Shown here: positions 37,103-55,553 of the stretch, piece by piece | Numbering within the stretch: the first letter of the stretch is position 1 | Layout: each line of letters opens with the position of its first letter | DNA from: a virus | Taxonomy: Duplodnaviria > Heunggongvirae > Uroviricota > Caudoviricetes > Straboviridae | Length of the DNA stretch: 64,000 bases | IMG/VR virus record: IMGVR_UViG_2974587864_000001 | Direction: 5' to 3' (one strand) | Program-made: the position numbers and the translations under genes | The notes under the pieces: generated by a model | Told to the model about the DNA's origin: nothing | The model's input: only the letters and a program-made list of their open reading frames with translations | Database searches by the model: none

Positions 37103-37135
37103 AAAAAAGCCCTTGCGAAATTGCAAGGGCTTTTT
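37103..37135. terminator. bidirectional rho-independent terminator
   Basis: AAAAAAGCCCTTGCGAAATTGCAAGGGCTTTTT. Confidence 0.65.
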
Positions 37136-48314: not shown

Positions 48315-48390
48315 GATGTTTTCCTTTCTCTGTTTCGTTTCGATGTGTGTAATATAACAAAGCCCCTGCATTGCTGCAAGGGCTTTTTCA
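48315..48390 (-). promoter_or_regulatory. stem-loop + TGTTATATT + leader cassette (PeSL-like)
   Basis: GCCCTTGCAGCAATGCAGGGGC-TTTGTTATATTACACACATCGAAACGAAACAGAGAAAGGAAAAC on minus strand. Confidence 0.5.
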
Positions 48391-52233: not shown

Positions 52234-52374
52234 TTAGTAATCCTCTACAGGTTGAGAAGATGCAACGCTCAGGATACGGAAAGAGCATTCATTCCATTTG
52301 CAGTAAGTTTTCGCACAGTGAACAGTGCCTTTCATTACAAACCCGTTTGAGAACACCAGCCAGTAAAGTTTCAT
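52234..52374 (-). CDS. small hypothetical protein (46 aa)
   Basis: ATG 52374 with AAAGGAGG RBS in conserved leader. Confidence 0.45.
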   Translation of the reverse strand: MKLYWLVFSNGFVMKGTVHCAKTYCKWNECSFRILSVASSQPVEDY

Positions 52375-52446
52375 GATTGCCTCCTTTGTTTCGACACCCC
52401 TAATATAACAAAAGCCCCTGCACGAATGCAAGGGCTTTTTTCAAAT
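52375..52446 (-). promoter_or_regulatory. stem-loop + TGTTATATT + leader cassette (PeSL-like)
   Basis: GCCCTTGCATTCGTGCAGGGGC-TTTTGTTATATTAGGGGTGTCGAAACAAAGGAGG on minus strand. Confidence 0.5.
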
Positions 52447-52680
52447 ATTTTTCAACATATGCAGTTGAGGCGGACAATCTTTTGAAGCAATCAGGCGATC
52501 CAGGCGTGACATAACGCGTCTGTAGCCGTCATACTCAAACTTGATTTTGGGTGTGCAAGGGCTTTTTTCAAATATTTTTCAACATATGCAGTTGAGGCGG
52601 ACAATCTTTTGAAGCAATCAGGCGATCCAGGCGTGACATAACGCGTCTGTAGCCGTCATACTCAAACTTGATTTTGGGTG
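52427..52680. repeat. perfect tandem direct duplication, 2 x 127 bp
   Basis: 52427-52553 and 52554-52680 identical; unit = last 35 codons of gene 52568..53125 plus half of its terminator hairpin. Confidence 0.85.
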
Positions 52681-53125
52681 CGATGTAGTTCACATGGATC
52701 GCGTTTCGCGTGTTCAGGCTCAACGTGTACTCAGGGATAACGGTTCGGAATCGTACAGCAATCACTGGTTTTTCGTGAGCAACCGAATCATCCATGTTTT
52801 CGAACATCTGGACGGTGAACGCACAGGCAAACACTTTGCCATTGATCCGGCGATATGCAATGACTTCCTGCATACCTTCGTTTTTCGCTTTCACCGCGTA
52901 ATACAGAACGTTACACGAATAATGTTTAGCGAGACTATTAAGAATTTCACTGTAGATCGCAAAGTCTTTTTTGACTGACGCGGAACGATCCAGGAATCGG
53001 TCTGCGATGTGATCTGTAGTCATTGAAACCTTTGTCACATACCAATCACTTAACGCTTTACTGAAATTTTGGTTAACTTCTCTGCGTAAGTTATTGATAA
53101 AATACATCAATCGTGCTCTGTTCAT
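52568..53125 (-). CDS. hypothetical protein (185 aa)
   Basis: ORF; 3' end duplicated downstream. Confidence 0.5.
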   Translation of the reverse strand: MNRARLMYFINNLRREVNQNFSKALSDWYVTKVSMTTDHIADRFLDRSASVKKDFAIYSEILNSLAKHYSCNVLYYAVKAKNEGMQEVIAYRRINGKVFACAFTVQMFENMDDSVAHEKPVIAVRFRTVIPEYTLSLNTRNAIHVNYIAPKIKFEYDGYRRVMSRLDRLIASKDCPPQLHMLKNI

Positions 53126-53128
53126 AAA

Positions 53129-53752
53129 TCACCCATTATGTTTAAAGTATTCGATCTGACGCAGACGTTTTTCCGCTGCCTCTTTCGAATCATATTCACC
53201 AAGTTCTTTCGTGCGATCATGGTTCAGCACAACCCACTTATCGCCGCGATGTTCGATGTGCTCCGTGATGTCTTCGACTTTCTTATCAAGATCCAGCGGT
53301 TCAGCATCTTCCTCGATAATAGTCAAATCTACGGGCAATGTCAACAGTCTTTTAACTCCGCTGATATCTTCGATGCGGGAATCATACGCGAGGGTTACAT
53401 GTGGTTTGTAATCGTCATAATCGTATGTTGCTCCAGCATCCATTGCATCTTTGAAGCGGCTATGGAGATAATCAGACTCCAGAACGCCCACGATCGTATT
53501 ACCGTATTTCGTTTCCCACTTCTCCACGTCAACCAGTCGGGCAGGTTCAGAGATACCGGATGCAGGGAACAGATCAACCGTCTTACGGCTATACACAATC
53601 GTTGTATGCAGCTTTGCAGCGGAAACAGGATTCTCTACACCCAGAAGTTTTTGCACCTTCGCGAGCGCTTCACAGGAAGCCTGATCGAACTTCGCACACA
53701 TATAGATCCCCGGATCAACTACGGGTTTCGCTACTTCAATAAAACTTTTCAT
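53129..53752 (-). CDS. 2H phosphoesterase (LigT-like; anti-CBASS Acb1-like candidate)
   Basis: two H-x-T-x motifs (LHTTIVYS, PHVTLAYD); occupies the 57B position next to 57A-like and gene 1. Confidence 0.6.
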   Translation of the reverse strand: MKSFIEVAKPVVDPGIYMCAKFDQASCEALAKVQKLLGVENPVSAAKLHTTIVYSRKTVDLFPASGISEPARLVDVEKWETKYGNTIVGVLESDYLHSRFKDAMDAGATYDYDDYKPHVTLAYDSRIEDISGVKRLLTLPVDLTIIEEDAEPLDLDKKVEDITEHIEHRGDKWVVLNHDRTKELGEYDSKEAAEKRLRQIEYFKHNG

Positions 53753-55297: not shown

Positions 55298-55553
55298 TTT
55301 ATAGATATTTAGATCAAGACCGTGAGCGAAGCGAACACACGAACGAAGTGAGTGTTATGTACGATGTACTGTTTATAATATTTATATTTTATATATAGAG
55401 AAAACAGTACATTTCCGTATACTTTTTATACAATCGTTAACTATCCGTCTTCGCTTCGCTTGACGGAACTCGCTTCGCTCGCGATCTAATTTTTAGTTGA
55501 TCTATTCAATAAATAGGTATATCATACCTATACTTTCAAAAGAGATTGAAAAC
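55298..55553. promoter_or_regulatory. 256-bp divergent intergenic control region: AT-rich core (55355-55444) flanked by inverted GCGAAGCGA-type repeats; TAAATA late-promoter-like motifs on both strands
   Basis: left arm GAGCGAAGCGAAC 55324-55336; right arm CTCGCTTCGCTC 55467-55479 plus second copy TCGCTTCGCT 55451-55460; palindromes GTACGATGTAC, ATAATATTTATATTTTATATAT. Confidence 0.45.

Follow-up and report, generated by a model that had tools for sequence, protein, structure and literature searches.

An exact 127-bp tandem repeat in the deposited genome of Cronobacter phage vB_CsaM_leE is very probably an untrimmed assembly overlap

Several papers describe an overlap of 127 bp, or 'pseudo terminal repeat', that the assembler SPAdes leaves where the contigs of circular or circularly permuted phage genomes begin and end. 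Two biological systems also offer models for a short tandem repeat in a T4-type genome. The duplications and amplifications known from T4, such as those of rII, Hp17 and dmd-tifA, are head-to-tail repeats of kilobase scale that usually comprise whole genes under selection, and their boundaries lie at microhomologies of 2-10 bp (typically 6-10 bp, with 2-10 bp given in older studies) (PMC9391042). The PeSLs of phages RB49 and phi1 are GC-rich stem-loop cassettes, whose shuffling is a process of homologous recombination with the crossover between two cassettes (PMC2839356).

The repeat studied here, from the phage vB_CsaM_leE (leE), resembles the SPAdes overlap in being exactly 127 bp long, perfectly identical, free of microhomology and arbitrarily placed with respect to genes, and in occurring in a circularly permuted T4-like genome whose relatives have a single copy. 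It differs from that overlap in being internal rather than at the record ends, and it should be noted that we infer the use of SPAdes for leE. With the T4 duplications it shares the head-to-tail arrangement and the T4-type genome, but not the homology (0 bp), the size (127 bp) or the content (a promoter-less gene tail). Like the PeSLs, the locus includes a GC-rich GGGC/GCCC stem-loop terminator that recurs between small genes, and one of its breakpoints lies inside this stem-loop; unlike in PeSL crossovers, which involve two cassettes, the second breakpoint lies inside an ORF that has no cassette.

The repeat was found in the window, i.e. the whole stretch of 64,000 nucleotides that was analysed, whose positions are used below unless stated otherwise. 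The 2.2 kb around the repeat are 100% identical to the genome of Cronobacter phage vB_CsaM_leE (KX443552.1 / NC_048646.1), a T4-like Pseudotevenvirus (Straboviridae) with a record length of 181,570 bp. Window position w corresponds to position w + 48464 of the leE record, and the repeat (window 52427-52680) thus occupies record positions 100891-101144. The identity of 52427-52553 and 52554-52680, claimed in a preliminary description made from the sequence, was confirmed by TRF (100% identity, period 127, 2.0 copies, no indels, score 508). The limits of the repeat are exact, with no further matching base on either side (a/T on the left, G/c on the right, the slash marking the break). The features of the locus are as follows.

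52234-52374, minus strand: downstream gene for a 46-aa protein, PHROG 7770, HWB01_gp189; untouched by the repeat
52410-52439, minus strand: intrinsic terminator, AAAAGCCCUUGCA-UUCG-UGCAGGGGCUUUU; 13 pairs, 6 of them GC, followed by a U-tract
52427-52553, no strand: copy 1 of the 127-bp unit, the gene-distal copy in the minus-strand sense; identical to 52554-52680
52549-52558, no strand: junction GGGTG/TGCAA, with the break at 52553/52554 and 0 bp of microhomology
52554-52566, minus strand: orphan terminator half at the junction (one arm and A-tract), unable to form the hairpin
52554-52680, no strand: copy 2 of the 127-bp unit, which runs on into the intact gene 52568-53125
52568-53125, minus strand: ORF for a 185-aa protein, PHROG 7718 (phrog_7718 match, E 2.9e-106)

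The sequence across the junction is GGGTG/TGCAAGGGC, or in longer form GATTTTGGGTG/TGCAAGGGCTTTT. This is the only tandem repeat that TRF detected in the window, and in the stitched whole genome of leE (181,570 bp) no exact direct repeat is longer; the second longest is dispersed and measures 70 bp. An exact repeat of 127 bp cannot have originated by chance.

The gene at 52568-53125 is intact despite the repeat, and its last 36 codons and stop codon lie inside the unit. It is annotated as HWB01_gp190 (52568-53107), and its start is ambiguous, because the ORF begins with an ATG at 53125 (185 aa) while the GenBank/RefSeq start is at 53107 (540 bp, 179 aa). A Pfam search of the 185-aa protein gave no match. 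The preliminary description was correct in placing the 3' end of this minus-strand gene in the unit, but not in counting 35 codons there: the unit contains 36 complete sense codons and the stop codon, plus 2 nt of codon 149, and even the peptide typed out in that description had 37 residues. The right breakpoint interrupts codon 149 after its first position. At its other end, the unit includes one half of the stem-loop, as had been described, namely the 9-nt arm TGCAAGGGC of the terminator hairpin 52410-52439. Likewise, the description of a second copy of the gene tail that has no promoter, with the complete terminator present only after the distal copy, holds. If the repeated sequence were real, the complete terminator would be reached only after transcription of this second gene tail, which would not be translated.

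Next to this gene, the 207-aa protein encoded at 53129-53752 (minus strand), named 'RNA ligase' in RefSeq (HWB01_gp191), showed a strong match to Pfam Acb1 (PF23474, E 3.8e-49), a family of anti-CBASS cyclic-nucleotide phosphodiesterases, and a weak match to the 2'-5' RNA ligase family that was under the cut-off of that family. Judging from these matches, the label of HWB01_gp191 is probably misleading.

The terminator at 52410-52439 has a predicted folding energy of -21.2 kcal/mol (z = -4.2), and the left breakpoint of the repeat (52426/52427) is the exact boundary between the hairpin loop and one stem arm. The junction region lacks the terminator stem and has a much weaker predicted fold, at -7.8 kcal/mol (z = -1.3). 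Further copies of the stem AAAGCCCTTGCA...TGCAGGGGCTTT, with TTATATTA downstream, are present at 48359-48386 and 37105-37134, and looser ones elsewhere. The full hairpin sequence, searched for with up to three mismatches in the 64-kb window, occurred only once, and no cassette was found 127 bp away from the one at the left breakpoint. In a wider description, the recurrent terminator cassette consists of AAAAAGCCCTTGCA, a 4-nt loop and TGCAGGGGCTTTT, at 48359-48386, 37105-37134 and 52410-52439; in its two minus-strand copies, TTATATTA..ATCGAAAC comes next after the stem-loop. Near-palindromic in sequence, the copy at 37.1 kb could end transcription on both strands.

Comparison with related genomes showed the single-copy arrangement everywhere except in leE. 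Most of the close relatives covering the whole of a 2,201-bp query do so with about 2,074 bp of sequence, i.e. 127 bp less; two of them span about 2.56 kb in three pieces as a result of an insertion elsewhere in the region. The comparison with sister isolates, which the preliminary description had proposed, was performed with the genomes of leN and leB: both aligned with a single copy and the same flanks, and the duplication is not shared. In agreement with this, BLAST of the 127-bp unit gave two matches in leE, and one each in leN, leB and two IMG/VR relatives. A 131-bp query spanning the junction aligned in one uninterrupted piece to the two versions of the leE record alone, while in the other 49 matching GenBank records it aligned either as two pieces on one 127-bp stretch or as a half match; among these 49 is Dev_CS701, with 100% identity to the query. 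The exact junction sequence was not found in viral, metagenome and bacterial genome collections. As a positive control for this search, the wild-type boundary was used, and it recovered two IMG/VR relatives, both single-copy.

On this evidence, it is very probable that the repeat is an overlap left untrimmed at the ends of a circular short-read assembly, of the SPAdes type with k = 127, and not a recent duplication; for an end-overlap artefact in general, including a variant from an assembler other than SPAdes, the probability is equally high or marginally higher. An assembly artefact was one of the three alternatives listed in the preliminary description, and it is the one favoured by the evidence. 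The course of events would be the following. The short reads of a circularly permuted T4-like genome would assemble as a circle, which a de Bruijn assembler would linearise in such a way that the first k bases are repeated at the contig end (127 bp at the largest k of SPAdes). The submitters would then have re-opened the circle at the rIIB stop codon, as for leN and leB, and in doing so would have fused the two former contig ends with the overlap still in place, leaving two adjacent units inside the record at 100891-101144. The junction 52553/52554 would be the joining point of the two contig ends, and copy 1 would be one of the original ends. This model supposes that SPAdes, or another assembler, was used with k = 127, and that no reads span the junction. 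The phage itself probably has one copy of the unit, in 181,443 bp of unique sequence.

Several observations are consistent with this model. The period of the repeat, 127, equals the largest k-mer of SPAdes, and a length equal to the final k is what would be expected of the artefact. The first base of the leE record is the last of the rIIB CDS, and the leE, leN and leB records agree in their first 30 and in their last 30 bases; these shared ends at the rIIB stop codon indicate that each of the three genomes was re-opened by hand. Because the record was rotated to this point, the end overlap would now be internal instead of lying at the record ends. No terminal overlaps were found in the leE, leN and leB records, which would be because all three have been rotated, and a second k-sized duplication, sought in leN, was not found. 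The microhomology at the junction is 0 bp on the left and 0 bp on the right, which is also the commonest outcome (56%) for arbitrary 127-bp segments of the window. In addition, the copies are 100% identical and meet at a junction with no indels or junk, as fits a closed de Bruijn cycle.

The breakpoints appear arbitrary with respect to the genes, the right one being within codon 149 and the left one at the boundary between loop and arm. The position of the left breakpoint is a mild coincidence, which by a rough estimate would be expected for a few per cent of random cuts. It counts mildly against the artefact, considering that a model of stalling at the hairpin would predict such a position. 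However, GC-rich inverted repeats may give rise to Illumina errors and coverage dips, and these to branch points in the assembly graph. One may speculate that a contig end at a hairpin would be unsurprising under the artefact model, too.

Further information comes from the sister genome leB (KX431559.1), whose record shares with that of leE the same host strain, sample source and location, and a near-adjacent accession number. At record positions 92717-93036, leB has an insertion of 179 bp when compared with leN and leE, composed of a 141-bp exact duplicate and of 38 bp of junk between the twins. The junk consists of ACAAAACCCGGCTTTTTAAAAACCCGA and a long C homopolymer, and there are base differences directly upstream of the insertion. 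As a result, the radical-SAM gene, which is a single gene in leN (N_169), is split in leB into B_169 and B_170. To judge from its sequence, this insertion is an unmistakable contig-join scar, and it shows that the overlap between contig ends was not removed in a sister genome of leE. It should be noted that, with 141 + 38 bp instead of 127, the scar is evidence of careless joining, and not of k = 127 specifically. In a separate region of the leE record (152634-154056), the gene for a nicotinate phosphoribosyltransferase appears as two overlapping ORFs (E_250 and E_251), while the same gene is one 1,434-bp gene in leN and leB; the split may be either a frameshift error or a real pseudogene.

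If the repeat were instead a real and very recent duplication in the leE stock, it might have formed when a replication fork stalled at the terminator hairpin and the preceding 127 bp were re-copied after a template switch, or by illegitimate end joining, for example mediated by a topoisomerase. We regard such an event as unlikely. The placement of the left breakpoint, precisely where loop and arm meet in a hairpin of -21 kcal/mol, is what this explanation would lead one to expect, and tandem duplications and amplifications arise readily in T4-type phages (PMC9391042). Moreover, the duplication would be tolerated, because the gene and the complete terminator stay intact. Against this, a microhomology of 0 bp is at variance with the direct repeats of 2-10 bp that mark T4-type duplications, the length coincides exactly with that of the SPAdes k-mer artefact, and the junction is absent from the 49 other GenBank records, from the two IMG/VR relatives and from the metagenome and genome collections. 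Duplicating a promoter-less gene tail would bring no obvious selectable benefit. A perfect 127-bp tandem repeat would also be unstable in a recombination-proficient T4-like phage. A homology-free template switch at a stalled hairpin is possible, although it has no positive support, and it appears improbable that the record captures a physically real, microhomology-independent, hairpin-anchored tandem duplication just after its origin in a T4-like phage. The length equal to k = 127, the lack of microhomology, the contact of just one breakpoint with the hairpin, the other being within a codon, the lack of any relative with the junction and the scar in leB leave unsupported the earlier suggestion of a 'very recent' biological event. 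Slippage at the TGC triplet common to the start of the unit and the right flank was considered as well, and was rejected, as it predicts a period of 125, not 127.

The preliminary description had also noted that the stem-loop recurs across the genome, and had seen in the position of the junction a sign that these cassettes are recombination hot spots. The recurrence is real (48359-48386, 37105-37134 and looser copies, between small genes), and the PeSLs of RB49 and phi1 are known to mediate insertion, deletion and formation of mini-circles (PMC2839356). However, modular shuffling of the PeSL type between promoter/terminator cassettes would require homologous cassettes at both breakpoints, and here the hairpin is touched only by the left one; the right one lies in the middle of codon 149, in a sequence with no similarity to the stem-loop, and the window offers neither a second full hairpin (up to three mismatches) nor a cassette 127 bp away. 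Because only one breakpoint is in a cassette, recombination of this kind is rejected as an extremely remote prospect, and the hot-spot interpretation is not borne out. Still within the range of technical causes, the repeat might be the end overlap of a different assembler, or of a manual merging of contigs, and match 127 by coincidence. The scar in leB, with its overlap of 141 bp and its junk, shows that joins of variable overlap occur in a sister genome deposited together with leE, but an exact fit to the one artefact length of SPAdes is unlikely to arise by chance, and the junction in leE is clean, with no junk bases, as predicted by a closed de Bruijn cycle. We therefore consider this variant very unlikely, and an untrimmed overlap of the SPAdes type remains the preferred explanation.

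The 70-bp repeat mentioned above is an AT-rich element (GTACGATGTACTGTTTATAATATTTATATTTTATATATAGAGAAAACAGTACATTTCCGTATACTTTTTA) at window positions 55359-55428 (record 103823-103892), found also at leE record positions 139504 and 31444. It is exact at these three dispersed intergenic sites, over shared lengths of 70, 52 and 48 bp, and includes the inverted repeat GTACTGTTT...AAACAGTAC. At least two of the sites (the one in this window and the one near record position 31.4 kb) coincide with a switch in annotated gene direction, and leN and leB carry the element, conserved, at the corresponding sites. It might act as a promoter or regulatory cassette.

In conclusion, the 127-bp repeat does exist in the deposited sequence, but the phage itself almost certainly lacks it. 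Its biological significance is negligible, and its value is that of a curation note. Were the duplication real after all, it would follow that a strong PeSL-like terminator hairpin can by itself start illegitimate template switching, with no need of a partner cassette. As it stands, 127 bases are probably spurious in both the GenBank record and the RefSeq reference of the species Pseudotevenvirus lee, and the scar in leB introduces a false split of the radical-SAM gene into its deposited and RefSeq genome. Such scars are open to misreading as recent duplications, pseudogenes or recombination hot spots; in later scans of rotated circular genomes, exact tandem repeats whose period is one of the k values commonly used by assemblers (55, 77, 99 or 127) could usefully be flagged automatically.
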